Of a stretch of 64,000 nt of DNA, positions 8,928 through 48,694 are shown piece after piece (within the stretch, counting starts at the first letter, position 1; each line of letters opens with the position of its first letter). A program made the position numbers and the translations under genes. The DNA is taken from the NCBI GenBank assembly GCA_017649945.1, contig JAGCFU010000080.1:220-64219 (forward strand), read 5' to 3'. Below the pieces are notes generated by a model. It made no database searches, had not been told where the DNA came from, and saw only the letters and a list, made by a program, of their open reading frames with translations. This DNA is from Bacteroidales bacterium. GTDB lineage: Bacteria > Bacteroidota > Bacteroidia > Bacteroidales > F082.

Positions 8928-8945
8928 TCCTTAAAAACAAGTGTT

Positions 8946-13583: not shown

Positions 13584-13590
13584 TTTTAGT

Positions 13591-30873: not shown

Positions 30874-31455
30874 TTACAAAATTGATAAAATTATCTCTTT
30901 CCCGATTTCCATTTTTGAGAAAGCGAACATTCTTTTTCCTAAATCTTTTAATGAAGCCCCGATGTGATATACTTCATTGTCAATAATCATAAATCTGTCA
31001 TGAGATTTATTGAACTGCTCAATGTTTATTGGCTGATACTGGGAATTGTGCTTTTTTAAATCCAGTTTAAGATTTTCAGAAATATGAGCTGTGTAGATTG
31101 TAGCGGAAACGTTGTCTTCTCGTTTGTTTAGAATTTTTAGAACCGAATCATCAACATAATTATCAATTAGTATAATTTCGTTCTTTGCTTTTCTTACTAA
31201 ATCAGAGATGAAGTTGTAGGCATCAAATATTTGTCCATCAAGTCGAACTACCGAGAAATTCTCGGAGGTTGAATCGGAGTCAATTTCATGTTCTTCATAA
31301 ATGTTTTTTAGATGTAAACTTATATTGTCTGTTGAACAGTCAAACAATATGGCCATTTGTGTTTGTGTCAGCCACACTGTTTCATCAGAAACCTTAACTT
31401 CAAGTTTAACGTTACTACTCTCTGTTTTGTAAACAACAACATTGTGATTATCCAT
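30874..31455 (-). CDS. RhuM-like N-terminus fused to a C-terminal domain seen on Bacteroidales ORF6N-type proteins (R-M-associated DNA-binding protein)
   Basis: N-terminus VVVYKTESSNVKLEVKVSDETVWLTQTQMAILF...LHLKNIYEE. C-terminus LIDNYVDDSVLKIL...SHDRFMIIDNEVYHIGASLKDLGKRMFAFSKM. The gene is AT-rich. Confidence 0.55.
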   Translation of the reverse strand: MDNHNVVVYKTESSNVKLEVKVSDETVWLTQTQMAILFDCSTDNISLHLKNIYEEHEIDSDSTSENFSVVRLDGQIFDAYNFISDLVRKAKNEIILIDNYVDDSVLKILNKREDNVSATIYTAHISENLKLDLKKHNSQYQPINIEQFNKSHDRFMIIDNEVYHIGASLKDLGKRMFAFSKMEIGKEIILSIL

Positions 31456-31504
31456 TATTTACAATTTTAAAAGATTCCAAAAATAGCGTTGAATTCCTTG
31501 GTTG

Positions 31505-31512
31505 CAAAATTA
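31505..31512 (-). promoter_or_regulatory. -7 promoter box (TAATTTTG) for 30874..31455
   Basis: Matches TAnnTTTG about 50 nt upstream of the ATG at 31455. Confidence 0.45.
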
Positions 31513-31621
31513 AGTCGTAATTCCTTATGTGTCAAGGATTTTAGTGTTAAATTTTGTTAACAAAAGTTGCGGAATTTTGGAGGAAATCTTAAAAAATTTT
31601 AACAATTATTATGCCTTTATT

Positions 31622-31798
31622 GGCCCCCGCTGCAGCCGTCCTAAGGCGGTGATCCTCATGGCGGGGAGTGCTTTCTGCTGAAAGCAAACGACTGGGCGCC
31701 CCGTCTTGAGTATCATCCGCTTAGTCCGGCTTTTAGGCCCTCGCTGCCCCGCAATCGGGCCGGGCCCCCGCGCCGCGAAGCGAAGTGGGGGCGAAGCC
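31622..31798 (-). repeat. GC-rich structured repeat, left copy (inverted relative to 43855..44030)
   Basis: Its reverse complement aligns end to end with 43855..44030, roughly four-fifths identical by eye. Several differences are paired across predicted helices. Confidence 0.85.
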
Positions 31799-32027
31799 AT
31801 GATGGAATGTGCAAAAAATGCAAATTGCTTTTTAAACCAATCTCAAAACTCATCGTTTAAATAGAATCTAATGTCAATTTTTCATCTTATTATTAAAAAT
31901 ATGTTTTCTATATTTGTTTTATTGCCTGCTTTTCATATAATGGCAGAGGTGCTATAATTAACAAAATGCAAAATAATTACACTGATATTTTTTTTCTGAA
32001 AAAAGTTGAAAATTGAAAAAAAATAAT

Positions 32028-32035
32028 TAAATTTG
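32028..32035 (+). promoter_or_regulatory. -7 promoter box (TAAATTTG) for the island operon(s)
   Basis: Matches TAnnTTTG 32 nt upstream of the ATG at 32067. A second match (TATATTTG) lies at 31909..31916. Confidence 0.45.
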
Positions 32036-32066
32036 CAAATCAAGTATTTTACATAAATTATATAGG

Positions 32067-33410
32067 ATGAAAAGCACTAACAATAAGAGTTTTAACGAGT
32101 TATCTTTAAAAAAAGATAAAGAAATGGTGTTTGACATCCATCAAAAAGAAAAGGTTCATGCTAAAAAAAGTAAAAACATTACACACACTGTAATAGATTT
32201 GTTCGCTGGCTGCGGAGGTTTGTCGCTTGGTTTATATCAAGCCGGTTGGGAAGGTCTTTTTGCCATTGAAAAGAATGCTTTTGCTTTTGAAACGCTTAAG
32301 TTCAATTTGATCGATAACAAGAAGCACTTCCAATGGCCTGAATGGCTGCCTCAAACCGAGCATGACATCAATGAAGTGTTGGAGAAATATCCGAAACAAT
32401 TGAGAGCATTGCGGGGAAAGGTGGATTTGGTAGCTGGAGGGCCTCCGTGTCAGGGCTTTTCCATGGCTGGAAAGCGTGTTGAGGATGATGTGCGCAATCA
32501 GTTGGTGTTTTCGTACATTAAGTTTATTGACTTGGTACAGCCGAAAATGATTCTTTTCGAAAATGTGAAAGGTTTCACTTATGCTTTCGATAAAGGGAAA
32601 TCGGCTTCTTCCGAGAATGAACCTTATTCCCACAAAGTGATTCGTGGGTTGGGAGATTTGGGTTACAACGTGAAACCCCATGTGATTGATTTTTCAGAGT
32701 ATGGTGTCCCTCAACGTCGCAAGCGTTTTATCCTTGTTGGGATTCGAAAAGAACTGGGTGCTCCTGATGGTTTCGAGGATTTGTTGAAAGCCAATCGAGA
32801 TTCATTCTTGGCTCAAAAAGGTTTGAAGTCCATCAATACCTTGCAGGATGCCATTTCTGATTTGCTTCGTTCCAACGGAGAAGTTTCCTCTCCTGACCGC
32901 AAAGGTTTTTATTCTGGAATATACGGCAAGAAGAAACTGACAGCGTACCAAAAACTGATGCGGGGCGATTATCCCCAAATGCACGAAATAGCGGATAGCC
33001 ATAGTTTTGCAAAGCACAAACAGGAGAAAATTACTTGTTACAAACGATTGTTGGCTGAATATCCAAAACGTGGCAAACGAATTGATGGGGAAGCCCGCGA
33101 ACAATGGGGCATCAAACAACGGGGGATCACCATTTTGGATCCCAATGTGGTTTCGCCGACCATTACCGGCAGTCCGGATGACTATTTGCACTATTCCGAA
33201 CCACGCATCATGACGGTTCGCGAATGTGCCCGCATACAGTCGTTCCCTGATTGGTACGAGATTAAAAAGAAATACACTACCGGTGGCAAGATGCGCAAGT
33301 TGGAAGTGCCCCGTTACACCCAAATTGGTAACGCCATTCCGCCACTATTTGCGGAGTTGGCGGGGAAAGTTTTATTAAATATGCTACGATATGGAACAGA
33401 TGCAGTTTAA
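32067..33410 (+). CDS. DNA (cytosine-5)-methyltransferase
   Basis: Motifs I DLFAGCGGLSLG, IV GGPPCQGFS, VI ENV, VIII QRRKR, IX TVRECARIQSFPD and X GNAIPP. Confidence 0.9.
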   Translation: MKSTNNKSFNELSLKKDKEMVFDIHQKEKVHAKKSKNITHTVIDLFAGCGGLSLGLYQAGWEGLFAIEKNAFAFETLKFNLIDNKKHFQWPEWLPQTEHDINEVLEKYPKQLRALRGKVDLVAGGPPCQGFSMAGKRVEDDVRNQLVFSYIKFIDLVQPKMILFENVKGFTYAFDKGKSASSENEPYSHKVIRGLGDLGYNVKPHVIDFSEYGVPQRRKRFILVGIRKELGAPDGFEDLLKANRDSFLAQKGLKSINTLQDAISDLLRSNGEVSSPDRKGFYSGIYGKKKLTAYQKLMRGDYPQMHEIADSHSFAKHKQEKITCYKRLLAEYPKRGKRIDGEAREQWGIKQRGITILDPNVVSPTITGSPDDYLHYSEPRIMTVRECARIQSFPDWYEIKKKYTTGGKMRKLEVPRYTQIGNAIPPLFAELAGKVLLNMLRYGTDAV

Positions 33411-35664
33411 AATAAGTTCATTTTTAAAAGATCTTATTGGACGAGAATTGATAACTGATGAATTCGTGGCAGTTTTCGAATTGGTTAAGAATTCTTTTGA
33501 TGCACATGCAAAAAAAGTAAAAGTTATTTTTGAAAATCAATATGACCCTACAAACGCCAGAATCATTATTTGGGACAATGGACGAGGAATGGACAAATCA
33601 GATTTACAAAACAAATGGTTATTTGTTGCGCATTCTGATAAAAGGGATGGAACGGAAGACAAAGATTACAGAGATAAAATCCAACACAAACGCACTTTTG
33701 CCGGAGCTAAAGGTGTTGGTCGCTTCTCTTGTGATAGATTAGGAAGATATTTAAATCTTATCTCAATTAAAGACGCACCTAATGCTTTAATAGAGAATCT
33801 CAAGATAGATTGGACTTCTTTTGAACAAGACTCCAACAAGGAATTCATAGATATTAAAGTTGAACATAATACTTTATCAGCAACAAACTATGAAGATTTT
33901 CATCAAGGAACTATTTTAGAGATCTCGGGGCTGCGAGATATATGGGATAGAGATAGGATTAAGAAATTGAAAGTATCATTAGAAAAGCTTATTAATCCAA
34001 TTCAAGGGAATGATGTTGACGATTTTGCTATTGAGATTATTGCTGACGATGAGTTATTACAAGATCAGAAAGAAAAAGATGATAGAGACAAGGTTAATGG
34101 TGTTGTTCGAAATATTGTCTTTGAGCGTTTGGGATTAAAGACAACACAAATTAAAGTGAGTATTACAAATCATGGTGGAACAATCACAACAACATTAACA
34201 GACAGAGGCACAGAGATATATACTTTAACAGAACGCAATCCATATGACAAATTATATGATATAGATATTGTATTGTTTGTTTTAAATAGAGCTGGAAAAA
34301 TCAACTTCAAAAAAATAATGGGTGTTGATTCCGTTAAATACGGGTCTGTCTTTATTTACAAGAATGGTTTCCGCATATATCCTTTTGGAGAGGAAGGTGA
34401 TGACACCTTGCAAATAGACCGACGCAAGCAACAAGGTTTCTATCGTTATTTGGGAACCCGTGATTTATTGGGACGTATTGAGATTAATGGCGAACGTTCT
34501 GATTTAAGAGAAACCACTAGTCGAGACGGTGGATTTATTAAAAATGAATCATGGAATCAGTTAGTTGAGTTTTTCTATGACAAAGCTTTACGCCGTCTTG
34601 AAACTTATACTGTGGGCATCATTAAATGGGGTGATGAAAAGTTTGACAAGGAAACTGGTGAAATTATTCAACCAGAACTAAAGCCCGAAGACGTTAAAGA
34701 CAAAATATTGGACATTATTTCTAATCTGACAAAAGCCAAAGAGGTAATAGATGTTCAATATAATCAGGATTTTTTAAAAATCTATGAATCTAAACAAGAA
34801 AAAAGCGCCACTCAACTTGTGAAAAATCTCACCCGCATGGCTGAAGAGACAAATAATCCACAATTTGTCAAACAAGCGAAAGCTGTAGAGAAACAAGTTA
34901 GCGAGATGAGACAATCCATTGGCGAACTTGAACGGGATAATGCCACCAAAACTGAAGAGAATAAAAATATTAAAAAAACTGTATCGCAATTACAAACAGA
35001 AAATTTATTCTTGATATCGGATGTCACAAATGATACCAAAGAGTTTAAAAGTTTGCATCATCACATCACGCACACTTCTGATTTGATTGCTGAATATATT
35101 TCCATTGCTATTGAAGCATTAAGTAAAGGCGACAACAAACGCGTGAAAGAATCGTTGCAATACATAGAAATAGAGAATCAGAAAATTTTGACATTATCCA
35201 ATTTCGTAAGCAAAGCAAAATTTGATACGAAAACAACTAAAATAAACGATGACATTATCAGTTTTGTTTACGAATACATAAACAATCTATATGTAATTAC
35301 TCATAAGAAACTAATTGTCAATGTTGAAAAAGCTTCGTTCAAATTTGTCACAAGGTTTGTGCCAATTGAAATGATAATACTCATTGATAATTTGCTGAAC
35401 AACTCTGAAAAAGCCAAAGCTCAAAATGTTTCGATAAGCTGGGTACTTGAGGAAAGCACCTTGACAATGCATTATGCTGATGATGGGCACGGCATTAAGC
35501 AAGAAGTTTTGCCACATGTATTTGAATACCGTTTTTCCACTACTAACGGAGGTGGTTTAGGATTGTATTATGTGAAAGAAATAGTTAACAAGATGAAAGG
35601 CTCGGTCCAAATTGATAACAGCAAGTCTAAAGGTGTGGAGTTTATTATAACTTTGAAGAAATGA
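33391..35664 (+). CDS. Cytoplasmic dual-GHKL protein: MORC/HATPase_c_3-like N-terminal ATPase plus a C-terminal histidine-kinase-like module
   Basis: N-terminal Bergerat motifs are ELVKNSFDA, WDNGRGMD and GAKGVGRFS. A coiled coil leads to the His-rich segment SLHHHITHTSDLI (aa 555-567). C-terminal kinase boxes are IDNLLNNSEKA, DDGHGI, VFEYRFST and GGGLGLYYVKEIV. No TM segment is seen. The start overlaps the MTase stop by 20 nt. Confidence 0.75.
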   Translation: MEQMQFKISSFLKDLIGRELITDEFVAVFELVKNSFDAHAKKVKVIFENQYDPTNARIIIWDNGRGMDKSDLQNKWLFVAHSDKRDGTEDKDYRDKIQHKRTFAGAKGVGRFSCDRLGRYLNLISIKDAPNALIENLKIDWTSFEQDSNKEFIDIKVEHNTLSATNYEDFHQGTILEISGLRDIWDRDRIKKLKVSLEKLINPIQGNDVDDFAIEIIADDELLQDQKEKDDRDKVNGVVRNIVFERLGLKTTQIKVSITNHGGTITTTLTDRGTEIYTLTERNPYDKLYDIDIVLFVLNRAGKINFKKIMGVDSVKYGSVFIYKNGFRIYPFGEEGDDTLQIDRRKQQGFYRYLGTRDLLGRIEINGERSDLRETTSRDGGFIKNESWNQLVEFFYDKALRRLETYTVGIIKWGDEKFDKETGEIIQPELKPEDVKDKILDIISNLTKAKEVIDVQYNQDFLKIYESKQEKSATQLVKNLTRMAEETNNPQFVKQAKAVEKQVSEMRQSIGELERDNATKTEENKNIKKTVSQLQTENLFLISDVTNDTKEFKSLHHHITHTSDLIAEYISIAIEALSKGDNKRVKESLQYIEIENQKILTLSNFVSKAKFDTKTTKINDDIISFVYEYINNLYVITHKKLIVNVEKASFKFVTRFVPIEMIILIDNLLNNSEKAKAQNVSISWVLEESTLTMHYADDGHGIKQEVLPHVFEYRFSTTNGGGLGLYYVKEIVNKMKGSVQIDNSKSKGVEFIITLKK

Positions 35665-36608
35665 GAATAAAATATAAGATACTCTGGGTAGATGATCGCA
35701 AGGATGAGTTCGAAAGGTTGTCTTATGATAAACGGATTATTGAATATGTCAAGAATCTGTTTTTCGAACCGCACTTAACATTCTGTGAGAATGTCGAGGA
35801 AGCTAAAGACATAATTAGTCATAATCATTTTGATGTCATTTTTTCAGATTATAACATCAATGATGGATCTTCCGGAGAGCAAGGAGACGGATTTATTTCA
35901 TATATTCGTTCCAGAAATGTGAATACTGAGGTGCTGTTTTATTCTGCCATGAAGGAATTGCCCACTTTAAAATTAAATCGTATAGTCTTTTTCTCGTTGG
36001 CGGGTTTGCAAGATGGTTATCGCAAGTTGTTAGAACAAATGGAAGGGCTCATATATCTCACAACGGAAAAACTACATGATTTGACGGCTCTGCGTGGTCT
36101 TGTTATGGCAGAGGTGAGTGAACTGGATGTCTTAATGGAACAAATCATTTTAGCATATTTCAATTCTCCAGAGAGAATGCGTACATTCCATGACCACATC
36201 ACAGCGAATCGAGAAGAAACTTGGCATAAAATGCTAAATTCTAGTACTCAGTGCGATAAGCAATGTTTTCACATATGGCGTGAAAAAGATCTAACAGAGT
36301 ATGTCAGCAAATTAGATTCTTCACAAAAAGCGCGTGCCATTAACATTGTGCTTTCAGATATTGACTCTGCTCATGCTATTTGTACAGATAGCAAATTTTT
36401 CAAGAACTATGATGATTCTATCATTCTCAATCGGAATAATTTAGCTCACTGCATTAGCGAAAAAGATAAGAATGGAAATGAAATCTTAAAAACATGGAAA
36501 GGAGAGAAAATATACAATGATGAAGAATTCCGCATTATGAGAGCGAATATTATTAAATATCACAACATGTTTACAACATTATTGACTACATTAACCGAAT
36601 CCGAATAA
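35661..36608 (+). CDS. Receiver (REC) domain protein with a HEPN-like C-terminal domain
   Basis: REC features are ILWVDDRKD (acidic pocket), FDVIFSDYNI (putative phospho-Asp D63), VLFYSAMKELP and K98. The C-terminal ~180 aa are helical and carry RNNLAH (R258-H263), which matches HEPN Rx4-6H. There is no HTH. The ATG overlaps the upstream stop (ATGA). Confidence 0.6.
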   Translation: MRIKYKILWVDDRKDEFERLSYDKRIIEYVKNLFFEPHLTFCENVEEAKDIISHNHFDVIFSDYNINDGSSGEQGDGFISYIRSRNVNTEVLFYSAMKELPTLKLNRIVFFSLAGLQDGYRKLLEQMEGLIYLTTEKLHDLTALRGLVMAEVSELDVLMEQIILAYFNSPERMRTFHDHITANREETWHKMLNSSTQCDKQCFHIWREKDLTEYVSKLDSSQKARAINIVLSDIDSAHAICTDSKFFKNYDDSIILNRNNLAHCISEKDKNGNEILKTWKGEKIYNDEEFRIMRANIIKYHNMFTTLLTTLTESE

Positions 36609-36740
36609 AGTATGGTTATAACAATATAATAGATTTTACAGTAAAACGAATAAAAAAGATTATGCATCAATTATGCCTATAGAACATTGCCCAGACCGCG
36701 ATTACTTGGCATATCATAGAGATAGAATTTTTAAAGGGAT

Positions 36741-38378
36741 ATGAAACAAAACATTTTAATGAAGAAAGAACAGACATTAAAACAAAAGGTAGCCGATTTA
36801 ATCGCACGGCATATGATTTGTTATTCCGAACAAGATTGTGCACAGATTCTTGTTGGACTTAATGTTATTTCCTCGTTTAATTTGAATATAGACCATCCAC
36901 AAGCATCGATTAACCTTAATCTTTTCCAAGAATCTTTGGCGAAAATCAATGAAAAAGAATTGAGGAGGCGTGATGAAGGTGTATACTATACCCCAAAAGA
37001 CGCAACAGAATATGTTGTTGCTAACACATACCTTAATTACGTTTGTCCAGACAACGTTCAAGTACATCCCGTTGATAAATGTTTGCAGATACTAACCCAA
37101 ATCAATAGTAGTAAGTTGGTTTGCGCTAAAGTTTTTGACCCAACATGTGGAACAGCCGAATTCTTGTTAAGTGCAATAAATCTAAAGTTGCAGATAATTG
37201 ATTGTGATTCCGATGACGCAATATTAAATCTTGTGTCAACAATATATGGCAACGATATTGCAGAAGAATCCATCTTTTTATCCAAGGTGAGATTGTTCTT
37301 TGCAGTTGTTAAGTTTCTTCAGGACAAGAATAATTCTGTAAGATTAGCAAAGATTTTAAATAAGAACTTCACCTCATTGGATTATATAATTAACCATAAC
37401 ATATCGCCAAAATATGATATAATTGTGGGTAATCCGCCATATGTAGAATACCGCAAATTACCCGTAAAGCCAACCACAAACTATGGAAACACATACGCCG
37501 ATGTTTTGCTAAATTCTATTAATGCAGCAAAGCAAAATGGTGCCTTGGGTTTCGTGATTCCCATATCATTTGTATCCACCGGACGCATGAAAGCTATTCG
37601 TGAGTATTCATATTCAAAGTTAAGCAAAATGTTTTTGCTTAACTTTGCGGATCGTCCTGATTGCTTATTTGATGGCGTTCACCAAAAACTTACAATATTC
37701 TTCGGAATCAAAGGCAGAAATAAATGCTGTGTCTACTCATCCAGTTACTACCATTGGTATAGCGAGGAACGAGATTATTTGCTCAGCAACGCAAGTGTTT
37801 TACCCGTTATTCCTTATGAAAAATACATTCCTAAAATCGGTAATGATTTTGAGCGGAGTATATTTGATAAAATAATGAGTGCTAAAGGGCTGACCTTAGC
37901 GGACATCACATCAGACACAAAAAGCAATACTTTGCTATATCTTAACATGCGTGGATGTTTTTGGATGAAAGCATTCTCTTTTAATCCGGGGTCAAATGAA
38001 TATAAGCAATTCAAAAGCCCGAAGGAAATGCAACCGTATATCCTTGCCATCTTAAATTCCAATCTCTATTTCCTTTATTGGACAATAGTTTCTGATTGTT
38101 GGCATATAACTGGAAAGGAAATATCCGAATTTATCATACCTATTAAAGACGTCAACTTCAAAGCTTTTAGAAATATATACAACAATATTGAAAAAAAATT
38201 AGAGGAAACCAAGAAGTATATCGGTAGCAAACAAACGGCTTATGAGTACAAACATAAAGATTGTAAGCCAGAGATAGACGCTGTTGATGATGCTTTGAAA
38301 GGTATATATAATCTCTCAGATGATGAAGTTGAATATTTAAGAAACTATAAAGTCAAATATAGAACTAGTAATGGCTAA
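36741..38378 (+). CDS. N6-adenine DNA methyltransferase (gamma class, Eco57I/TaqI-like)
   Basis: Motif X GVYYTPKD, motif I VFDPTCGTAEFLL and motif IV VGNPPY. Confidence 0.85.
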   Translation: MKQNILMKKEQTLKQKVADLIARHMICYSEQDCAQILVGLNVISSFNLNIDHPQASINLNLFQESLAKINEKELRRRDEGVYYTPKDATEYVVANTYLNYVCPDNVQVHPVDKCLQILTQINSSKLVCAKVFDPTCGTAEFLLSAINLKLQIIDCDSDDAILNLVSTIYGNDIAEESIFLSKVRLFFAVVKFLQDKNNSVRLAKILNKNFTSLDYIINHNISPKYDIIVGNPPYVEYRKLPVKPTTNYGNTYADVLLNSINAAKQNGALGFVIPISFVSTGRMKAIREYSYSKLSKMFLLNFADRPDCLFDGVHQKLTIFFGIKGRNKCCVYSSSYYHWYSEERDYLLSNASVLPVIPYEKYIPKIGNDFERSIFDKIMSAKGLTLADITSDTKSNTLLYLNMRGCFWMKAFSFNPGSNEYKQFKSPKEMQPYILAILNSNLYFLYWTIVSDCWHITGKEISEFIIPIKDVNFKAFRNIYNNIEKKLEETKKYIGSKQTAYEYKHKDCKPEIDAVDDALKGIYNLSDDEVEYLRNYKVKYRTSNG

Positions 38379-39498
38379 ATATAACGTCATAGATTTGTTT
38401 TCAGGCTGTGGAGGTTTTTCTGTAGGTTTTGAAAGAGCGGGCTATCGTATCATTAAGGCGGTAGAATACGACAAAACAATTGCCGTTTCTTACTCGCATA
38501 ATCATAAGGCAACAATTATGTATGCAGAAGATATAGGAAAGATAGACAATGAAGATCATTTTACATGCGGAGAATCAGATGTAATCATTGGGGGCCCCCC
38601 ATGTCAAGGTTTCTCTATGGCAGGTGCGAGAATTCGTGAAAAAAATGCATTTATGAACGACCCGCGAAACTTTCTTTTTCGTCACTATGTGAACGTTGTC
38701 AAAATAGTTCGTCCAAAAGTATTCTTGTTGGAAAATGTTAAGGGAATCTTGTCAAAAGACAAAGGCGCCATATTCAAAGAGATAGTCAGTGCTTTTAGCA
38801 ACCCTGATAATTTTGAAGGGGATAGATATTATTTGCACTACAAAGTTTGCAAGGCTGTAGAATATGGAGTACCTCAACAACGAGAACGTGTTGTTGTGAT
38901 AGGCGTGCTCAATCACGATTTTAATATAGACGAAGTATTTGAGTTTGCCCGGAGAAATATCCTTAAAAAAGATAAGCACTTCTTTGATGCTGTATCATTG
39001 CGAGATGCAATTTCTGATTTAGGTCACCCGACAATTGATGGCATTACGGAATTACAACCTTGTCAATCCAGGTATCAAGAATTCTTGCGTGAGGGGTGCG
39101 ATAAAACTTCAAATCACATAGCATCTAAACATAATGCAATTGCTATTAACCGGATGCAACATATTGAAGTGGGACAAAACTGGGAAGTATTAAATGAAGA
39201 TATCCACTCTGTGCATAGCGGTGCATATGGTCGATTGGCATGGGACAAGCCAACTATGACAATAACAACTCGTTTTGATACACCAGCTGGAGGAAGATTT
39301 ATTCATCCGGTAGAAAATAGGACTCTAACGCCGCGCGAAGCTGCCCGCATACAGTCTTTCCCTGACAGTTTTGAGTTCTTAGGAAATAAAACAATTGTTT
39401 GTAGACAAATAGGAAATGCGGTACCACCGAAAATGGCATACTTTTTAGCAAATGTAGTAAAACATATATTTTATGAATATGGGAAAACTAAGCGATGA
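38371..39498 (+). CDS. DNA (cytosine-5)-methyltransferase (second copy, different TRD)
   Basis: Motifs DLFSGCGGFSVG, GGPPCQGFS, ENV, QQRER, TPREAARIQSFPD and GNAVPP. It overlaps the upstream gene by 8 nt. Confidence 0.9.
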   Translation: MAKYNVIDLFSGCGGFSVGFERAGYRIIKAVEYDKTIAVSYSHNHKATIMYAEDIGKIDNEDHFTCGESDVIIGGPPCQGFSMAGARIREKNAFMNDPRNFLFRHYVNVVKIVRPKVFLLENVKGILSKDKGAIFKEIVSAFSNPDNFEGDRYYLHYKVCKAVEYGVPQQRERVVVIGVLNHDFNIDEVFEFARRNILKKDKHFFDAVSLRDAISDLGHPTIDGITELQPCQSRYQEFLREGCDKTSNHIASKHNAIAINRMQHIEVGQNWEVLNEDIHSVHSGAYGRLAWDKPTMTITTRFDTPAGGRFIHPVENRTLTPREAARIQSFPDSFEFLGNKTIVCRQIGNAVPPKMAYFLANVVKHIFYEYGKTKR

Positions 39499-41257
39499 AA
39501 AACTCGCCAAATTGAAAACCTTGGATAGTCAAGGAGGATTTTGGTATATCACAAAGCAAAATCTAGTATTTCGAGATTTATGCTTTATGGCAAAAATTCT
39601 TGAGGCATGGGATGACCGTAAGGAGGAGAATTATGAAAGTTTCTTTAATAAGCACAAGATTCTTCCTGATTTTGGTGCTTTTGATCCCCTTATTGCTCAT
39701 CGTGCTACAAAAAATTGTGAATACATCGGATTGACTGTGCCTTCTGAAAAATACAGTGCACAAAATTTGACTCCGTTCTATTTCGCGCTAAAGAAGTTGT
39801 GTGGAGGCGATTTTAACCAATTGTCTTCTTATCCTCAAATTATTGATAAACAATTGGAACGGATGTTTATTGATTCGCGTACAAATAAAACATATACTAC
39901 TAATTTTCAAATTTGCCCATTTATGTTTTTGTTCAAAGTTTTGCTCCTTATAGGAGATATTACAAAATCGTATAAAATTTCGACAGCAGAATTTAAGCTG
40001 TTTGTTGCAACTGCACAGAGTTGGAATGAATACTTTGAAGTTGTAGAATCTATTTTAAGATATAGAACCGACGCGGATTTCCAAGCACAATGCAATAAGA
40101 ACAACACAAAAGTTAGCGATGTTCGTTACAATATATTAGCTCAAAATCATTCTCAGCTTGCAGTTACAAGTAGCGATATAGCTATATTGGAAAATGAAGT
40201 TAGAAATGTACGTAGAAAAGTAGCAGAATATGAATTAAGTGAAAGAGTTCAATCTGCAGAAGAAATTTTTACAGCGGGTTCTTTTGTTGAAAAAACATTC
40301 CAGAAAATATATTACGGTGCTCCTGGAACCGGCAAAAGCCACGAAGTAAAAAAGCAAACTGAAGAATTGTTGGATAGTGGCGAAGAAAGAGACTTGCCCA
40401 ATGTTTTCCGCACCACTTTCCATCCTGATACGGATTATGCTTCTTTCGTGGGATGTTATAAGCCTACCATGAAACCGACATCCAAAGAGGAAAAGACTCT
40501 CACCGGCAAAGATGAAGAGATAGTATATGAATTTGTTCCGCAGGTCTTTACAGATGCGTACGTTTATGCGTATAATAATTCCGACCAACCGACCTACTTG
40601 GTTATAGAGGAAATCAACCGTGGTAACTGTGCACAGATATTTGGCGACCTGTTCCAGCTATTGGACAGAAACGGAGGCGTTTCCGAATATAAAATCAAAG
40701 CAGACAAAGACTTGGCGCTATACCTCCGTGACAAATTGGATGCAGACTCCCAAGGCATCCAAGACGGAAAACTATGCTTGCCTGCCAACCTGCATATCCT
40801 TGCCACCATGAACACCTCCGACCAGAGTCTGTTCCCTATGGACAGCGCCTTCAAACGCCGTTGGGAATGGGAATACGTGCCCATCAATTATGACACAACC
40901 ATCAAATCGGGCGAGTTTGAAGTTACCATCGGTGACAAGTCCTATTCATGGGTTGTATTTATCAAGCAAGTGAACGAGAAGATCTTCGACCTTACCCAAA
41001 GCGAAGACAAACAAATGGGTAACTTTTTCATCAAACAATCCATTGATGAAAAAGGGTTCAAGAGCAAAGTGATGTTCTACCTTTGGTACGAAGTGCTACG
41101 TGACGAAACGGAAAACAACAAATACTTCTTCTACAAGAAAACTATCGTTGACGGCAAAGAAGTGTCAAGCAAATTCACATTTAAAGACCTATTCGGAGAT
41201 AAAGCGACGGAGACATTGCAGCAGTTCATGGATTACTTGAAGGTTGACCCTAAATGA
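39473..41257 (+). CDS. McrB-like AAA+ GTPase restriction subunit (LlaJI R1-like) with an unassigned ~270-aa N-terminal domain
   Basis: Walker A GAPGTGKSH, then FHPDTDYASFVG, VIEEINRGN, ATMNTSDQS (McrB NTAD-like) and AFKRRWEW. Confidence 0.85.
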   Translation: MNMGKLSDEKLAKLKTLDSQGGFWYITKQNLVFRDLCFMAKILEAWDDRKEENYESFFNKHKILPDFGAFDPLIAHRATKNCEYIGLTVPSEKYSAQNLTPFYFALKKLCGGDFNQLSSYPQIIDKQLERMFIDSRTNKTYTTNFQICPFMFLFKVLLLIGDITKSYKISTAEFKLFVATAQSWNEYFEVVESILRYRTDADFQAQCNKNNTKVSDVRYNILAQNHSQLAVTSSDIAILENEVRNVRRKVAEYELSERVQSAEEIFTAGSFVEKTFQKIYYGAPGTGKSHEVKKQTEELLDSGEERDLPNVFRTTFHPDTDYASFVGCYKPTMKPTSKEEKTLTGKDEEIVYEFVPQVFTDAYVYAYNNSDQPTYLVIEEINRGNCAQIFGDLFQLLDRNGGVSEYKIKADKDLALYLRDKLDADSQGIQDGKLCLPANLHILATMNTSDQSLFPMDSAFKRRWEWEYVPINYDTTIKSGEFEVTIGDKSYSWVVFIKQVNEKIFDLTQSEDKQMGNFFIKQSIDEKGFKSKVMFYLWYEVLRDETENNKYFFYKKTIVDGKEVSSKFTFKDLFGDKATETLQQFMDYLKVDPK

Positions 41258-43332
41258 AAATACTCATTGAGCAATACGGCTACGACAAGGGCAGGTTGAG
41301 TTCCATACTCGACCCACACTATTTCACTGAACTGCGTGACGGGAAAGCCAAGATACCCTATGTGGGTTATTTCCTGTCGCACAAGATTCCGGACATGGTG
41401 TTTATCCTGCCGAAAGTATTCATCATCGAAGGCAAAGCCTTTGGTGAATACGATCCGGAAGAGATTATCGACTTCGAGCAACTCAAGCCGGAGCACAAAG
41501 CCAATGTGTTCAGCCTTTCGGTATGGATATATCGCGCCATCAAACTCTATTTCCAACACAAAGACAAGATAGGAGAGGAATCGGAGATATTGCAGAACGT
41601 GGTTTCTCACCAAGGTCCGAGAAGCGAGACAATGATAGATATTGTGCTTTCTCTGCTGAAGTTTGACAAAGAGCACAAGAACCTGTTTGCCTATATCACC
41701 CGCCTCAAGCACTCCGGACAAAACAAAATCCATTGGCAGAAAACAATCTCCCGGACACAGGCACTCATCCAAAACGGTGTACCTATTTACCTCCAACCGC
41801 ACACCAAACAGAAAGACATTAACTTCGATGAAGAGCTGATTGTACTGTTTTACTCAGTACTGAACTATCTCGCTCAGGAATTCAAGTTCAATGTGCGTCC
41901 GGCATTTGGGTACGACTTACTCAAACCCGAGACCATCCAATCCATGATAGACAGTGGGAAAGGCGTTCATGTGCTCCGTCAAAACCGCCGCAAGTACTTC
42001 ACGGACGAGATGGTACAGTTGTGGAACCTACTCTTCACCTTCTTCGAGCAATCCCAATATGTCCAAAGCAAAGATAATGACGACGAACAAGCTATGCTGG
42101 TTCGCGAGTTCAACCTTGTCTTTGAAGATATGATTGACTCACTCATCGGCGATAGTGATATATCAGGAGGACTGAAAGAGCAAAAAGATGGTAAAATCAT
42201 CGACCATATCTACCGCGATAATGCACTGATAGAAGATAAGAAACAAATCTATTTCATTGGTGACAGCAAATATTACAAGGATGACAACGACATCGGTCCG
42301 AATTCTATCTACAAGCAGTTCACATACGCCAAGAACGTCATCCAGTACAATATTGATTTCTTCAACAGCAGGCCTCAAGAGTTTGAGGCGGAGAACCTGC
42401 AATATCGGGATAACACTACCGAAGGCTACAACATCACCCCGAACTTCTTTATTCGAGGTCACCTGCAAGCCGGGCAACTGAATGACTACAGCAATGCTAA
42501 TTTGAAATTGGAGAAGATGAATGATGGTAAGAGCCATAGGATTTCGTACCATTTTGAGAATCGGCTCTTTGACCGTGACACGCTGATTTTGCAAACGTAT
42601 AGCATTAATTTCCTGTTTGTGCTGGCTTGTTATGTGCAAGGGGCAGGCGAGCACACACAAGAAATCAGAAGTATATTCCGTGAAAATATCAAGAAGGTTC
42701 TTCAATTGCAATATGGTTTCTTTGCCATCAAGCCGAGAGTTCATGACGAGACAGAGCAGTTCTTGCATGACAATTTTCAACAGGTGCTTGGCAAAGTATT
42801 TGCACCGTATGGTGGTTCGACCAATTGCATGACTTTAGCTTTAGATAATGATGCTGATAATACGGAAACACTTGCGCTGATAGATAAGTATTTTTACAGG
42901 AAACCTATTCCAAATAATCAACTGGATGTAAAACCGGATACATTGTTTGACACTGACGAGCAGACGATTATGCATGCTGTGGAACTTTCGGTGGATATGC
43001 ATGATAAATGTGTCATTACGGCACTTGTCAGAAAAGATGACAAGAGTTTTGACAAATTTAATATCGGAGGAGCTAAAGAATATGTCATGGAGTCGATTCC
43101 GGCTGTTAGTTTATGGAGCATCAAATACTTAATGCCGATGGCCTCATATGATTTTATTGGATATTATGAGGTGACGGACATAAAGTTTAATCCAATGACA
43201 AAAAGATTGCGGTTCATGTTGGGGCAGTTCTTCCCGTTGGGCGATTTACCGGTTAACGTGGCTGGGAAAATGAGGCACGGTGAATTGATTAACCTTGAAT
43301 ACGTACAAAAATTATATAACAAGGAAATATAA
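41254..43332 (+). CDS. LlaJI/McrC-like restriction endonuclease subunit
   Basis: 692 aa. The ATGA overlap with the McrB-like gene suggests translational coupling. The PD-(D/E)xK-like block is IIDHIY...(x)...YFIGDSKYYKD (D317, D337-S-K339). Confidence 0.65.
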   Translation: MKILIEQYGYDKGRLSSILDPHYFTELRDGKAKIPYVGYFLSHKIPDMVFILPKVFIIEGKAFGEYDPEEIIDFEQLKPEHKANVFSLSVWIYRAIKLYFQHKDKIGEESEILQNVVSHQGPRSETMIDIVLSLLKFDKEHKNLFAYITRLKHSGQNKIHWQKTISRTQALIQNGVPIYLQPHTKQKDINFDEELIVLFYSVLNYLAQEFKFNVRPAFGYDLLKPETIQSMIDSGKGVHVLRQNRRKYFTDEMVQLWNLLFTFFEQSQYVQSKDNDDEQAMLVREFNLVFEDMIDSLIGDSDISGGLKEQKDGKIIDHIYRDNALIEDKKQIYFIGDSKYYKDDNDIGPNSIYKQFTYAKNVIQYNIDFFNSRPQEFEAENLQYRDNTTEGYNITPNFFIRGHLQAGQLNDYSNANLKLEKMNDGKSHRISYHFENRLFDRDTLILQTYSINFLFVLACYVQGAGEHTQEIRSIFRENIKKVLQLQYGFFAIKPRVHDETEQFLHDNFQQVLGKVFAPYGGSTNCMTLALDNDADNTETLALIDKYFYRKPIPNNQLDVKPDTLFDTDEQTIMHAVELSVDMHDKCVITALVRKDDKSFDKFNIGGAKEYVMESIPAVSLWSIKYLMPMASYDFIGYYEVTDIKFNPMTKRLRFMLGQFFPLGDLPVNVAGKMRHGELINLEYVQKLYNKEI

Positions 43333-43847
43333 TGACCGACCACTTCACCCCAATCCAACGGCACCTTGTGATGTCACACATCCGCAGCCGTAACACTAAA
43401 CCCGAGCTGAAGGTGCGCAAATGGCTTTGGTCTCATGGCTATCGCTATCGTCTTAACGTAAAAGGAGTTCCTGGCAAGCCAGACATCGTAATGCGTCGTT
43501 ATCGCACTGCAATCTTTGTTAATGGTTGCTTCTGGCATGGTCATGAGGGATGTGAGAAGTTCAAGATGCCGAAAACAAATGTCGAGTTTTGGGAGGCGAA
43601 AATACGGAGAAATAGAGAACGAGACTGTCAAAACTATCAGATTTTAAAGGAAAACGGATGGCAAGTACTTGTGCTTTGGGAGTGCGAGCTTACAAAGAAG
43701 TCGTTTGAAGCAACTATGCAGAAAGTGGAAGTGATGCTGCATGATTATTGCTTGAAGACTATAAGTCCCAAGGTTAAAGAATATATTAGAGTGGATGAAG
43801 ATGCCATTCAGATGGCAGCTGAAGCAGAAGCTGATTATGGAGATTAA
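43332..43847 (+). CDS. vsr: Very short patch repair endonuclease
   Basis: Contains TKPELKVRKWLWSHGYRYRLN...PGKPDIVMRRYRTAIFVNGCFWHGH, the diagnostic Vsr core. Confidence 0.9.
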   Translation: MTDHFTPIQRHLVMSHIRSRNTKPELKVRKWLWSHGYRYRLNVKGVPGKPDIVMRRYRTAIFVNGCFWHGHEGCEKFKMPKTNVEFWEAKIRRNRERDCQNYQILKENGWQVLVLWECELTKKSFEATMQKVEVMLHDYCLKTISPKVKEYIRVDEDAIQMAAEAEADYGD

Positions 43848-44829: not shown

Positions 44830-44837
44830 TACCTTTG
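44830..44837 (+). promoter_or_regulatory. -7 promoter box (TACCTTTG) for the Fic gene
   Basis: Matches TAnnTTTG 25 nt upstream of the ATG at 44862. Confidence 0.45.
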
Positions 44838-44861
44838 CAAAGACAACATTTAGCATTTATA

Positions 44862-46046
44862 ATGTCTGACAATCATCCATATCTGAACTTCGATGAGTAC
44901 ATCCGGCAAGGGGAGCCGTCGCAAAAAGAGAAGGCTCTGAACTGGGAGACTGCTATTGGCTTGCAGGCCGTAGACGGACTTCGTGTGTCGGATTATCTGC
45001 GAGAGACCGCACAAAAGCACATCGAAGGGGAGATATCGTCAGATGATGTAAAACGGCGCATCAGAGAGTATTATCAAACCAAAACCAAACGCGAACCGGA
45101 CGACGATGAGCACCAGGAAGCGGATAGCGTGTCGAGCAACATCCAGGAAATACTGGCGACAAACACTCTCGATTTTTCAGTCAGAGGCTATATGGCCTTA
45201 CATCGAAAAATTTTTGACGGTGTTTTCAAACATGCTGGCCAACTGCGTAAATGTGACATCTCCAAAAAGGAATGGGTGCTTGAATGGGATACAGTCGATT
45301 ATCTGTTTTGGCAAGATTTGCACCGCGCTTTGGAATACGATATCGCAAAAGAACGCGAATTCAGCTACAAAGGCATCTCTAAGGATGATCTGATAAAGCA
45401 TGTCGCCAGATTTACTTCTGATCTTTGGCAAATCCATGCTTTCGGCGAAGGCAACACCCGAACAACTGCGGTTTTCATTATCCAGTATCTGCGGTCGTTG
45501 GGTTTTGAAGTGACTAACGATATGTTTGCCAAGCATTCTTGGTATTTTCGCAACGCTCTCGTTCGTGCTAATTACAAAAGCGCGGTGAAAGGCATTGATT
45601 ATTCTCCAATTTATTTGGAAAGATTCTTCCGCAACCTGCTTCTCGGCGAGCAATGGGATATGCGGAACCGCTATCTGCATATTCATCCTACAGTAGAATG
45701 GAGAATACAGCCAAATTTGGCAGACCCCACAAGTATCCCCACAAGTAAGGAACAAACACCCATCAAGCACACATCAAGCACCCATCAAGTTGTGAACAAG
45801 TTTCATACAAAGAATCAGAATATAATAGATCTGATAAAAATTGTAGGGGATGAGGGAATCTCAGTTAAAAATATGATGGTAAGGATTGGGTTAAAAGATC
45901 GTGTGAACTTTATGAATCTTTATCTGAATCCAGCCATTGCCGAAGGTTATATTCGAATGTTATATCCAGATAAACCACACCATCCTCGCCAGAAATACCT
46001 CCTCACAGTGAAAGGATTGTCGCTTTACAAAGAAATTACAAGATAA
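44862..46046 (+). CDS. Fic/DOC-family protein with an N-terminal VbhA-like segment and a C-terminal wHTH-like region
   Basis: The Fic motif variant HAFGEGNTRTTA lies at 45435..45470. The canonical form is HxFx(D/E)GNGRxxR, so G is replaced by T and the last R by A. The start is moved to ATG 44862 because the listed start is a TTG inside the promoter box. Confidence 0.75.
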   Translation: MSDNHPYLNFDEYIRQGEPSQKEKALNWETAIGLQAVDGLRVSDYLRETAQKHIEGEISSDDVKRRIREYYQTKTKREPDDDEHQEADSVSSNIQEILATNTLDFSVRGYMALHRKIFDGVFKHAGQLRKCDISKKEWVLEWDTVDYLFWQDLHRALEYDIAKEREFSYKGISKDDLIKHVARFTSDLWQIHAFGEGNTRTTAVFIIQYLRSLGFEVTNDMFAKHSWYFRNALVRANYKSAVKGIDYSPIYLERFFRNLLLGEQWDMRNRYLHIHPTVEWRIQPNLADPTSIPTSKEQTPIKHTSSTHQVVNKFHTKNQNIIDLIKIVGDEGISVKNMMVRIGLKDRVNFMNLYLNPAIAEGYIRMLYPDKPHHPRQKYLLTVKGLSLYKEITR

Positions 46047-46784: not shown

Positions 46785-47159
46785 ATGATTCAAATCGGAT
46801 TATCTCATACATCAACAACAACTGTAAACAACACTAACACCGCCCGTACTTACGGCTCCGGCGGTCTCGACGTGTTCGCAACGCCGGCAATGATCGGCCT
46901 CATGGAAAACGCAGCAATGACTGCCGTTGAGAACGACCTGCCGGAAGGCTCGTCTACCGTGGGCGCGCATATCAGCACATCACACGTCAAGCCTTCAAAA
47001 CTCGGCGCAACGATAAAAGCAACCGCCGTCCTCGAAGAAATCGACGGCCGTAAGCTCACGTTCAAAGTGTCGGCATGCGACGACGAAGGCATCATCGGCG
47101 AAGGCACTCACATCCGCTATATCGTCGACATCGAACGCTTTATGGCGAAACTCAAATGA
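46785..47159 (+). CDS. Hotdog-fold thioesterase (FlK/fluoroacetyl-CoA-thioesterase-like family)
   Basis: Contains ...GSGGLDVFATPAMIGLMENAA...VGAHISTSHVKPS...KLTFKVSACDD. The start is set at MIQIGL. Confidence 0.65.
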   Translation: MIQIGLSHTSTTTVNNTNTARTYGSGGLDVFATPAMIGLMENAAMTAVENDLPEGSSTVGAHISTSHVKPSKLGATIKATAVLEEIDGRKLTFKVSACDDEGIIGEGTHIRYIVDIERFMAKLK

Positions 47160-47848
47160 TAAAAACCACCATCATCAACGGCTCGGAAATCCGCTACGAG
47201 TTCAAACGCTCGCCTCGGCGGAGCGTGTCGGCTCACATACGTCGCGACGGCGTGATAGAGGTGAAAGCGCCGCTGCTGTACCGCGAAAGCGACATGCTAT
47301 CATTCCTGAACCAGCATAAACGATGGATTTTTAATCATCTCGACAGACTGCAAAACACTGATAATCAACAGAAAAAGTACATTTCTGGAGAGATTCATTA
47401 CTATCTTGGCGAAAAATACACGCTTCAAGTGGTTGAAAGCAACAAAAACTCAGTTTTTATTGAAGGTAACTCATTGATAATCAATTCTAAATATCCGGAA
47501 AACCCGGACTATTTAGAGGTTTTATTAAACAAATGGTATAGAAACCAAGCAAAAAAAGTGTTTGCTGAACTGCTGCCTCCAATTATCGAAAAATTCAAGA
47601 AATACAACGTTGCTCCAGCCAAAATAAGCATCCGCGACATGCGGTCGAGATGGGGCAGCTGCTCACGAAAAGGCAACATAAGCCTCAACCTGCAGCTTAT
47701 AAAACTCAACGAAAACTGCATCCGACAAGTGATGGTCCACGAAATGTGCCACCTCGTTTATTTCAACCACCAAGCCGGATTCCATGCACTAATGGATGAA
47801 ATGATGCCTGATTGGAAACTATGGAAGAAGGATCTGAAGTTTCTTTAA
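47156..47848 (+). CDS. M48-family / YgjP-like (DUF45) metallohydrolase
   Basis: HEMCHL zinc motif plus WGSCS. The start MIKTTII overlaps the upstream stop (ATGA). Confidence 0.75.
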   Translation: MIKTTIINGSEIRYEFKRSPRRSVSAHIRRDGVIEVKAPLLYRESDMLSFLNQHKRWIFNHLDRLQNTDNQQKKYISGEIHYYLGEKYTLQVVESNKNSVFIEGNSLIINSKYPENPDYLEVLLNKWYRNQAKKVFAELLPPIIEKFKKYNVAPAKISIRDMRSRWGSCSRKGNISLNLQLIKLNENCIRQVMVHEMCHLVYFNHQAGFHALMDEMMPDWKLWKKDLKFL

Positions 47849-48623: not shown

Positions 48624-48694
48624 TTTTAATGCCCTTTGCAGAAAAACGACCTACCACAGGGTACTGGTGAGTCTTTCGAAAATGGTATTAAAAA
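48624..48694. repeat. Long-hairpin repeat, family B, copy 2
   Basis: The sequence tttttaatgccctttgcagaaaaacgacctaccacagggtactggtgagtctttcgaaaatggtattaaaaa aligns with 7051..7121. It overlaps the 3' end of miaA. Confidence 0.65.

Follow-up and report, generated by a model that had tools for sequence, protein, structure and literature searches.

A C5 methylase, a dual-GHKL histidine kinase and a receiver-HEPN-like protein form a conserved operon of the Ambrosia kind in a Bacteroidales genome

A 64,000-nucleotide stretch of DNA from a Bacteroidales bacterium (GenBank assembly GCA_017649945.1, contig JAGCFU010000080.1), hereafter the window, to whose positions all coordinates refer unless stated otherwise, carries at 32067-36608 three open reading frames (ORFs) on the forward strand, which encode a C5 cytosine DNA methyltransferase (gene 1), a soluble histidine kinase with two GHKL domains (gene 2) and a receiver domain joined to a HEPN-like helical domain (gene 3). 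This trio is a variant of the kind of system that has been described as HEF_HK/Response_reg_2 elements (PMC8011034) and as Ambrosia (bioRxiv 10.1101/2025.09.30.679545), with a C5 methylase, a receiver-HEPN output and no XRE regulator. The receiver-HEPN effector appears to be new, being noted in neither of those two reports, and it argues for a direct enzymatic output over transcriptional control. As to function, we give about an even chance to the view that the trio is a conflict or defence module complete in itself and spread by horizontal transfer, in which a methylation-gated phosphorelay would lead to a HEPN RNase. The parts of the locus on which the argument depends are as follows.

32067-33410, forward strand: gene 1, C5 cytosine DNA methyltransferase, an ORF of 447 residues (Pfam PF00145, TIGR00675)
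33391-34650, forward strand: gene 2, N-terminal sensor half, consisting of a MORC/MutL-type GHKL ATPase (residues 1-210; HATPase_c_3) and an Arg-rich conserved middle domain (residues 211-420)
34765-35664, forward strand: gene 2, C-terminal half, consisting of a coiled coil (residues ~459-545), a DHp domain and a CA domain (HATPase_c and kinase-core matches)
35661-36035, forward strand: gene 3, receiver domain (residues 1-125; AlphaFold2 model, Foldseek, D63 codon at 35847-35849)
36036-36608, forward strand: gene 3, HEPN-like all-alpha putative effector domain (residues 126-315; RNNLAH motif, HEPN-clan matches in homologs)
36673-36744, forward strand: remnant of an HNH_2 endonuclease gene, 23 codons (MPIEHCPDRDYLAYHRDRIFKGI, then the stop codon), recognized by tblastn with intact relatives

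An earlier note on this DNA, made from the sequence alone, had described three tightly coupled genes in an AT-rich island, and in this it was accurate. The ORFs (gene 1, 32067-33410, 447 residues; gene 2, 33391-35664, 757 residues; gene 3, 35661-36608, 315 residues) have exactly the coordinates that it gave; genes 1 and 2 overlap by 20 nucleotides, genes 2 and 3 overlap by four as an ATGA that can be read directly in the sequence, and the trio has a GC content of 36.9%, as against 43.8% for the window. The same arrangement recurs widely. Starting from an alignment of gene 3 homologs, 56 loci were taken from one-genome-per-species contigs, and in these loci ORFs were called and searched with the window proteins; the loci represent Bacteroidota (several orders), Treponema and other Spirochaetota, Fibrobacterota, Akkermansia, Eubacteriales, Gastranaerophilales, Sericytochromatia, Holosporaceae, Patescibacteria, Aminicenantes, Methanosarcinales and Aenigmatarchaeota. 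In seven of them the contig breaks off within the operon or ahead of it. In every one of the 49 informative loci, which cover at least eight phyla including archaea, the methylase is followed by the dual-GHKL kinase and then by the receiver protein on a single strand, with a kinase-to-receiver gap of -4 nucleotides in 23 loci and a methylase-to-kinase gap that is usually -4 to -20 nucleotides. This three-gene linkage is far above chance, and the synteny of genes 2 and 3 with a C5 methylase, on which the earlier note had staked its reading, was thus seen in 49 of 49 loci, always with a specific methylase subfamily.

Gene 1 is a C5 methyltransferase, as the earlier note had it. It matches Pfam DNA_methylase (PF00145) in full length (E 5.7e-59, profile positions 2-320 of 324) as well as TIGR00675 (E 3e-47), its best solved relative is 3g7u, and the catalytic PPC (P126-C128, at 32442-32450) and the ENV motif (E165-V167) are at least 95% conserved across the 49 orthologs. 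Codons 1-40 of the ORF (32067-32186) are unconserved in these orthologs, the conserved part beginning at residue 41, and therefore translation of the methylase may start at M20 (32124) or later. The specificity of the co-inherited subfamily is apparent from phmmer, in which its members match gene 1 with E-values of 1e-124 to 1e-257 and the second C5 methylase of the window with only about 1e-30; in addition, the trio methylases share 14 positions of at least 95% conservation in the variable target-recognition region. Vsr lies directly beside the trio in loci that have no other methylase (L049, L051, L061 and L062), which suggests that the trio methylase constitutively places 5-methylcytosine in the host genome.

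Gene 2 contains HATPase_c_3 at residues 26-157 (E 1.2e-24) and HATPase_c at residues 662-756 (E 1.9e-26). Its GHKL head (residues 27-216) matches the BbrUII/HgiDII model NF050001 with an E-value of 3e-18, at 65.7 bits against a cutoff of 550, and GHKL motifs I-IV, as defined for paraMORCs (Iyer 2008), are invariant in it. Residues E30, N34, D37, D62, G64, G66, G105, G108, G110 and G173 of the sensor, as well as K303, are identical in 50 of 50 sequences. Residues 545-755 align with solved DHp and CA cores (phmmer against the Protein Data Bank (PDB): 5c93/4u7n at 2.3e-09, also HK853), the top Foldseek matches of the kinase core are YycG and HK853 (1.8e-11), and the AlphaFold2 model has long helices at 459-607. 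The protein therefore combines a DHp phospho-acceptor histidine with a CA domain having N, G1 and G2 boxes, which are the criteria of a two-component kinase: the N box has N671, the G boxes have D697, G699, G701, G720, G722 and G724, and of these N671, G722 and G724 never vary among the 50 sequences. The phospho-acceptor is H557 (codon 35059-35061), which becomes the H-box histidine when I559 is aligned to the conserved hydrophobic residue at +2, and which is likewise invariant in all 50. The His-rich helix (H556-H561) to which attention had been drawn does hold the phospho-acceptor, but its other histidines vary; position 558 is H in 21 sequences, D in 15 and Q in 8, and the window has H557-H558. 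No transmembrane segment is present (maximum 19-residue Kyte-Doolittle score 1.29), so that the description of gene 2 as a soluble protein with a GHKL sensor, a coiled coil and a kinase module stands, with all the motifs quoted for it. Copies of gene 2 that are identical or 96% identical occur on many contigs.

The first 125 residues of gene 3 are a receiver domain. On its own the protein matches Response_reg weakly (9e-5, under the gathering score), and all 61 of the family members scanned match it at E<0.01. The AlphaFold2 model (pLDDT, predicted local distance difference test, 88) consists of a receiver domain and then a helical domain, and Foldseek finds for it receiver domains of the PorX, ComE and CheY type. 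The acid pocket (D11/D12) is nearly invariant, and among the 61 homologs D58, the phospho-acceptor D63, R83, Y94, S95, R145, G146, E151, R258, N259, A262 and H263 are invariant; D63, R145, G146, R258, N259 and H263 remain so in relatives of 20-31% identity. Weak matches to cREC_REC were also seen in 8 of the 61 members (alignment A1; best E 4e-4, below the gathering score). The cREC_REC domain is a receiver variant linked to the processing of RNA 2',3'-cyclic phosphate ends, the product of HEPN cleavage. PDB entry 9qih, 'SenB', gave a weak match to the receiver part only and was set aside, the literature on SenB dealing with unrelated proteins.

The C-terminal domain of gene 3 is probably a HEPN domain, and RNase activity is predicted for it on that ground. 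Its RNNLAH motif (residues 258-263, at 36432-36449) belongs to a pattern, R258-N259-x-x-A262-H263, that is invariant in three alignments reaching archaea and that fits the HEPN signature Rx4-6H with a polar residue after R. The helix-1 motif RGLVMAEVSELD begins at 36093, and the first helix of the domain also has another invariant polar patch (RGLVMAEvSeLD). In the AlphaFold2 model RNxxAH closes a long helix, after which come a beta hairpin and the last long helix. When the 61 members were scanned singly, 15 gave HEPN-clan matches at E<0.01 (HEPN_RiboL-PSP 9, HepT-like 4, MAE_28990 2), and two close homologs, P0014 and P0020, score at or above the gathering threshold of HEPN_RiboL-PSP (PF18735). 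Thus, the earlier view of this helical, RNNLAH-bearing region as HEPN-like is strengthened, both by the invariance of R258, N259 and H263 down to archaea and by the matches in homologs. Searched against 1.84 billion representatives, a profile of the domain recovered 864 clusters (50% identity); of the best 150, nearly all are 290-330 residues long, with the domain starting at residue ~120-130, and therefore the fusion of receiver and domain is a fixed architecture.

The way in which the parts vary is informative about how they may work together. Over the 49 loci, identity in the kinase core follows identity in the receiver domain with r=0.91, far better than it does identity in any other part. 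Locus L007 is 96-97% identical to the window in the sensor half and 91% in the HEPN domain, but only 60% in the kinase core and 65% in the receiver; locus L008 is 91-95% identical in the sensor and 80% in the receiver, but 41% in the HEPN domain. The kinase core at the 3' end of gene 2 and the receiver at the 5' end of gene 3 (34765-36035 in the window) have been swapped as one contiguous DNA tract between operons that are nearly identical elsewhere, and it is because they are contiguous that they move together, while the HEPN domain is exchanged independently of this tract. As far as sequence comparison can tell, the pattern is the one that a cognate phosphotransfer pair would give if its input and output modules could be exchanged. 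The dual-GHKL kinases are also paired with other receivers. On an Enterobacter mori plasmid (L063, 7144-8217 of that locus) the partner has a C-terminus of ~230 residues with no Pfam match, and on a Stenotrophomonas plasmid (L064, 7135-7773) it has a short helical tail like that of AbrC, the Ambrosia receiver. These unrelated C-termini suggest a kinase family with swappable receiver effectors, a modularity that is typical of defence systems.

The module also moves between genomes. In loci L001-L006, a Bacteroides uniformis-type element, a mobile element carries the trio by itself, flanked on one side by a DDE transposase and on the other by a Toprim primase and an Hc1-like gene, and is inserted in no fewer than five chromosomal contexts; the gene 3 homolog of this Bacteroides element (P0048) is present on 580 contigs. 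No receiver-HEPN gene was found in phage, plasmid and IMG/VR collections, and the module is therefore, as judged from these searches, cellular or borne by integrative and conjugative elements, not by phages. A BFVD model, A0A8S5LY51 (Myoviridae sp. ctrnx29, 298 residues, 'response regulator protein'), aligns to the whole gene 3 model over 319 columns (E 2.8e-4); despite this match, phage records and IMG/VR yielded nothing to a tblastn search with gene 3.

The earlier note knew of no described or named system with this layout, and this part of it has to be withdrawn: the layout had been reported in 2021, a relative was validated in 2025, and a vestige of an HNH_2 gene lies in the window. Bellieny-Rabelo et al. 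(2021) found, in 628 strains, that receiver-like genes were linked at 91.6% to soluble HATPase_c_3+DHp+HATPase_c proteins, with a C5 DNA_methylase upstream, Vsr often directly downstream, HNH_2 as the commonest nuclease neighbour and an enrichment of restriction-modification (R-M) genes; Bacteroides, Prevotella and Akkermansia were among the genera (PMC8011034). The gene order of these HEF_HK/Response_reg_2 elements is that of the trio, whose loci also have Vsr, HNH_2 and R-M neighbours and likewise include those three genera. They differ in that their core histidine is followed by Glu or Asp, whereas the trio family has H, D or Q at this position (H558 in the window), and in that the authors identified no known domain past the receiver and speculated on regulation of R-M, proposing no RNase effector. 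Formal membership in the 2021 family is not established, because PF19191 (HEF_HK) and PF19192 (Response_reg_2) never matched the window proteins, 104 family members or the Enterobacter and Stenotrophomonas relatives, in searches of a library whose inclusion of the two models is uncertain.

Ambrosia, a validated anti-phage system of Pseudomonas aeruginosa, comprises the XRE regulator AbrR, the N6 methylase AbrA, AbrB (747 residues, with HATPase_c_3, a coiled coil and HATPase_c), AbrC (a receiver of 209 residues) and the HNH endonuclease AbrD; its defence needs all five genes and is abolished by AbrB N40A, in the ATPase, or AbrC D60A, at the phospho-acceptor (10.1101/2025.09.30.679545). With the first 399 residues of AbrB (preprint Table S1) as the BLASTP query, residues 11-211 align with residues 5-207 of gene 2 at 30% identity (E 7e-24). 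Both systems have a methylase, a soluble dual-GHKL protein of ~750 residues with a coiled coil, and directly downstream a receiver with a phospho-acceptor aspartate (D63 here), and the HNH endonuclease that comes next in Ambrosia is intact in seven trio-related loci and present as a remnant in the window. They differ in the methylase, which is N6-adenine specific in AbrA and of the C5 type (PF00145) here, and in the output: AbrC has a short helical tail annotated as a winged helix-turn-helix and no Rx4H, whereas gene 3 has the HEPN-like domain, and hhalign of AbrC against the gene 3 family gave no significant match and none to the HEPN domain. Moreover, AbrR is XRE/HipB-like, whereas no XRE regulator or C-protein was found upstream of the trio, where 31456-32066 has no plausible ORF. 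Ambrosia has been reported from Gammaproteobacteria only, in contrast to the spread of the trio across bacteria and archaea.

Ambrosia ends with an intact AbrD, whereas the window holds only the last 23 codons of an HNH_2 gene, in the spacer 3' of gene 3. These are 82% identical over 22 residues (tblastn) to the intact HNH_2 proteins of 258 residues in L023 and L025, and their TGA overlaps the ATG of an Eco57I-like N6 methylase at 36741. In 7 of the 56 loci (L012, L014, L022, L023, L025, L026 and L036) the gene directly after receiver-HEPN is an intact HNH_2 gene of 240-258 residues (PF13391, about 1e-11; 5e-12 in L023 and L025), and about 85% of related loci have no HNH_2 at all. The window copy is thus, to judge by this remnant, an HNH-deleted form of an Ambrosia-like four-gene layout.

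Several other known systems resemble the trio in part. Detocs (DtcA-DtcB-DtcC) shares the anti-phage logic of a kinase that signals to a receiver-effector, as well as swappable effector domains. The distinction that had been drawn between the two is sound, since genes 2 and 3 have no match in PADLOC-DB 2.0 and the window trio has neither a second receiver gene, such as the buffer receiver DtcB, nor the PNP domain of the receiver-PNP protein DtcC; the sensor is a GHKL ATPase and the methylase is obligatory, and Detocs is therefore an analogue and not a relative. A 2013 survey of HEPN proteins reported direct fusions of paraMORC with HEPN (Ymh) in R-M neighbourhoods, which it likened to PrrC, and reported no receiver-HEPN fusion (PMC3710099). 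As in these fusions and in paraMORC R-M systems (PMC3710099, PMC2292703), a GHKL ATPase is paired in the trio with a predicted HEPN RNase near cytosine methylases and Vsr; there, however, the fusion is direct, whereas in the trio a histidine-kinase core and a receiver intervene, and the HEPN domain is closest to RiboL-PSP/AbiD-F and not to Ymh. The BbrUII/HgiDII type II restriction enzymes have a homologous N-terminal GHKL head and a paired C5 methylase, but also a nuclease half, in place of which gene 2 has a coiled coil and a kinase core; gene 2 also scores far under the cutoff of their model. The Vibrio WASA systems (GHKL-Shedu VcSduA) were ruled out as the same system, being a GHKL-DUF4263 fusion.

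The trio of the window is set in an island rich in other defence genes. The prediction of a LlaJI/McrBC-like restriction operon and Vsr downstream agrees with Pfam, PADLOC and NCBIfam, and the neighbours, which lie outside the core, are listed here.

30874-31455, reverse strand: protein of 193 residues matching the PADLOC candidate PDC-S05 (2.3e-73)
36741-43847, forward strand: Eco57I-like N6 methylase, second C5 methylase, McrB/LlaJI.R1-like AAA protein, LlaJI.R2-like protein and Vsr (Pfam, PADLOC, NCBIfam)
44835-46046, forward strand: Fic/DOC protein with a VbhA-like motif, PDC-S72 (2.2e-119)
47075-47848: YgjP-like metallopeptidase
48651-49568, reverse strand: weak SIR2/mad8-like protein
51040-53565, reverse strand: PDC-M37B/DolB-like protein, 841 residues

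The island of the window thus combines PDC-S05, a LlaJI-like R-M system with two methylases, Vsr, the Fic protein PDC-S72 and a PDC-M37B-like gene. Relatives of the genes at 36741-43847 flank the trio in part of the 56 loci (McrB-like 17, LlaJI-like 12, Vsr 14, second C5 methylase 22), and in many loci the trio is alone, with no such flanking genes. The PDC-S05-like protein seems shorter than its profiles of 285-346 residues, only its N- and C-terminal parts being matched. A GC-rich patch (31600-31860) lies within the otherwise AT-rich 611-bp spacer 5' of the methylase; it has no repeat elsewhere in the window and no Rfam match. The island has no tRNA genes and no Rfam matches, and a scan for sigma-70 promoters and terminators was uninformative for a Bacteroidales genome. 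Another AT-rich stretch (7890-15420, forward strand), which encodes large proteins (1545 and 609 residues) with type IX secretion C-terminal sorting domains, is unrelated to the trio.

We infer the trigger, the direction of methylation gating, the RNase activity and the phenotype of the trio to be as follows. The C5 methylase would constitutively mark a fixed sequence of the host DNA as self. The GHKL ATPase and Arg-rich middle domain of gene 2, a module with homology to the ATPase heads found in paraMORCs and in the BbrUII/HgiDII-type restriction enzymes, would detect invading DNA, most simply as unmarked DNA, and its ATP-driven dimerisation would be relayed through the coiled coil to the DHp/CA core, where H557 would be autophosphorylated. 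The phosphoryl group would then move from H557 to D63 of the receiver-HEPN protein; phosphorylation would lead to dimerisation and to a composite Rx4H active site, and the HEPN domain would cleave RNA, bringing the infected cell to a halt by abortive infection. Loss of the methylase would, by this logic, arrest a cell as well, as in addiction, and the HNH_2 DNA endonuclease would be a fourth component in some relatives, deleted in the window. The narrower idea that this is R-M logic whose restriction arm has been replaced by a phosphorelay, the GHKL ATPase reading the methylation state and driving the kinase, and the receiver switching the HEPN RNase, is put forward tentatively.

A defence phosphorelay that ends in a HEPN RNase is supported by several lines of evidence: the loss of Ambrosia defence in AbrB N40A and AbrC D60A (10.1101/2025.09.30.679545); the paraMORC-HEPN fusions reported in R-M neighbourhoods in 2013 (PMC3710099); the unbroken linkage of the three genes, with invariant ATPase modules, H557, D63 and R258/N259/H263; the co-variation of kinase core and receiver; and the HEPN-clan matches, the co-conserved methylase subfamily, the carriage on mobile elements and the defence-rich island. 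Other observations weigh against it. In Ambrosia, AbrA methylation did not protect phage, the genes were induced on infection, and the authors favour transcriptional induction (10.1101/2025.09.30.679545). Identity in the methylase target region correlates weakly with identity in the sensor domains (r about 0.3-0.47), and the sequences give no sign of a co-evolving specificity between methylase and sensor. The receiver hallmarks listed in the earlier note stand as regards the DD pocket, D63 and S95, but K98 is not conserved and the family has no conserved beta5 lysine; helix alpha4 is absent from the AlphaFold2 model of gene 3 as well, and therefore receiver switching may be atypical. It is because AbrA methylation did not protect phage, methylase and sensor co-vary weakly and the receiver is atypical that the gating step, in particular, is weakened. 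Of the profile scans that had been proposed, those for HATPase_c_3 and HATPase_c in gene 2 succeeded and that for Response_reg stayed below threshold, but gene 3 of the window itself has no HEPN match in Pfam. The profile of its C-terminal domain found nothing significant among PDB sequences and no solved homolog, and Foldseek of the whole model against PDB and BFVD returned receiver-domain matches only. TrwK, the best PDB-sequence match (E 1.3), was rejected as a chance match on RDNLAH. The AlphaFold2 model of gene 2 has an overall pLDDT of 68, with low confidence in the sensor half and values of 45-60 in the middle domain, the region after the GHKL head in which paraMORCs have an S5-fold domain. 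Finally, the HNH_2 remnant may be a sign that the system has decayed in the window.

Some of these observations lead to other explanations. The findings on Ambrosia, together with the weak co-variation of methylase target region and sensor, favour a scheme, which we consider doubtful, in which the kinase, responding to an infection cue that has nothing to do with methylation status, phosphorylates the receiver, and in which the methylase is part of an attack or another layer and not a self-mark. It may then make the substrate for a methyl-dependent nuclease, such as HNH_2 or the McrB/LlaJI-like proteins, with the HEPN domain as an additional effector or a regulator acting on RNA; HNH_2 after the trio in some loci, its remnant in the window, and the McrB-like and LlaJI-like genes that flank the trio elsewhere are in line with this. 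Most loci, however, have neither HNH_2 nor McrB-like genes, so that the trio alone is the conserved unit, its receiver has no DNA-binding domain, and Vsr beside otherwise methylase-free trios points to constitutive self-methylation. An improbable alternative is a guardian of the PrrC/RloC type, whose GHKL-kinase would monitor a partner R-M activity, either its own methylase or the adjacent LlaJI-like system, and fire the HEPN RNase when a phage anti-restriction function disables that partner. The analogy was drawn for the paraMORC-HEPN (Ymh) fusions in the 2013 survey (PMC3710099), and R-M genes are frequent neighbours, also in the statistics of PMC8011034, but the type of neighbouring R-M system varies or none is present, the C5 methylase being the sole constant.

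The least probable explanation, to which we give very little weight, is a housekeeping cytoplasmic two-component system that tunes the expression of nearby R-M genes, with the C-terminus of gene 3 as a non-catalytic RNA- or protein-binding output. Such a role was the speculation of PMC8011034 and would be in keeping with the transcriptional induction in Ambrosia. However, the HEPN-motif R, N and H are invariant across hundreds of clusters at 50% identity, which argues for catalysis, gene 3 has no helix-turn-helix, and the module occurs on mobile elements and across domains of life with no fixed regulated target. It is also unlikely that the window copy is a non-functional relic left after the loss of HNH_2. 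Only 23 codons of that gene persist at 36673-36744, but the three ORFs are intact with every catalytic residue, near-identical copies of gene 2 exist on many contigs, and the great majority of related loci naturally have no HNH_2.

The trio matters beyond this genome. Its family is large (864 clusters, almost all of them with a receiver-plus-domain architecture of 300-320 residues), is found in both bacteria and archaea, and is frequent in gut Bacteroidales, a group in which few studies of defence systems have been made. Current annotation tools label the trio genes as "sensor histidine kinase" and "hypothetical protein", and DefenseFinder flagged AbrB with a type II restriction endonuclease model and may therefore report the methylase and gene 2 as an ordinary type II R-M system. 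Since the translationally coupled operon unites three parts that are each well understood in signalling or defence, namely a methylase, a phosphorelay of the two-component type and a predicted HEPN RNase, each proposed step can be tested by a point mutant. If the HEPN output is real, it would give the class of systems to which Ambrosia belongs a biochemical read-out that is direct. The operon would further allow a test of whether MORC-like ATPases of bacteria read DNA methylation, as is thought of their eukaryotic relatives. If a methylation-reading phosphorelay is true, it would imply that Ambrosia-type systems signal to enzymatic effectors, not to promoters; gene 2 would be the first histidine kinase with an epigenetic DNA mark as its input, and gene 3 the first RNase toxin to serve as a two-component output.

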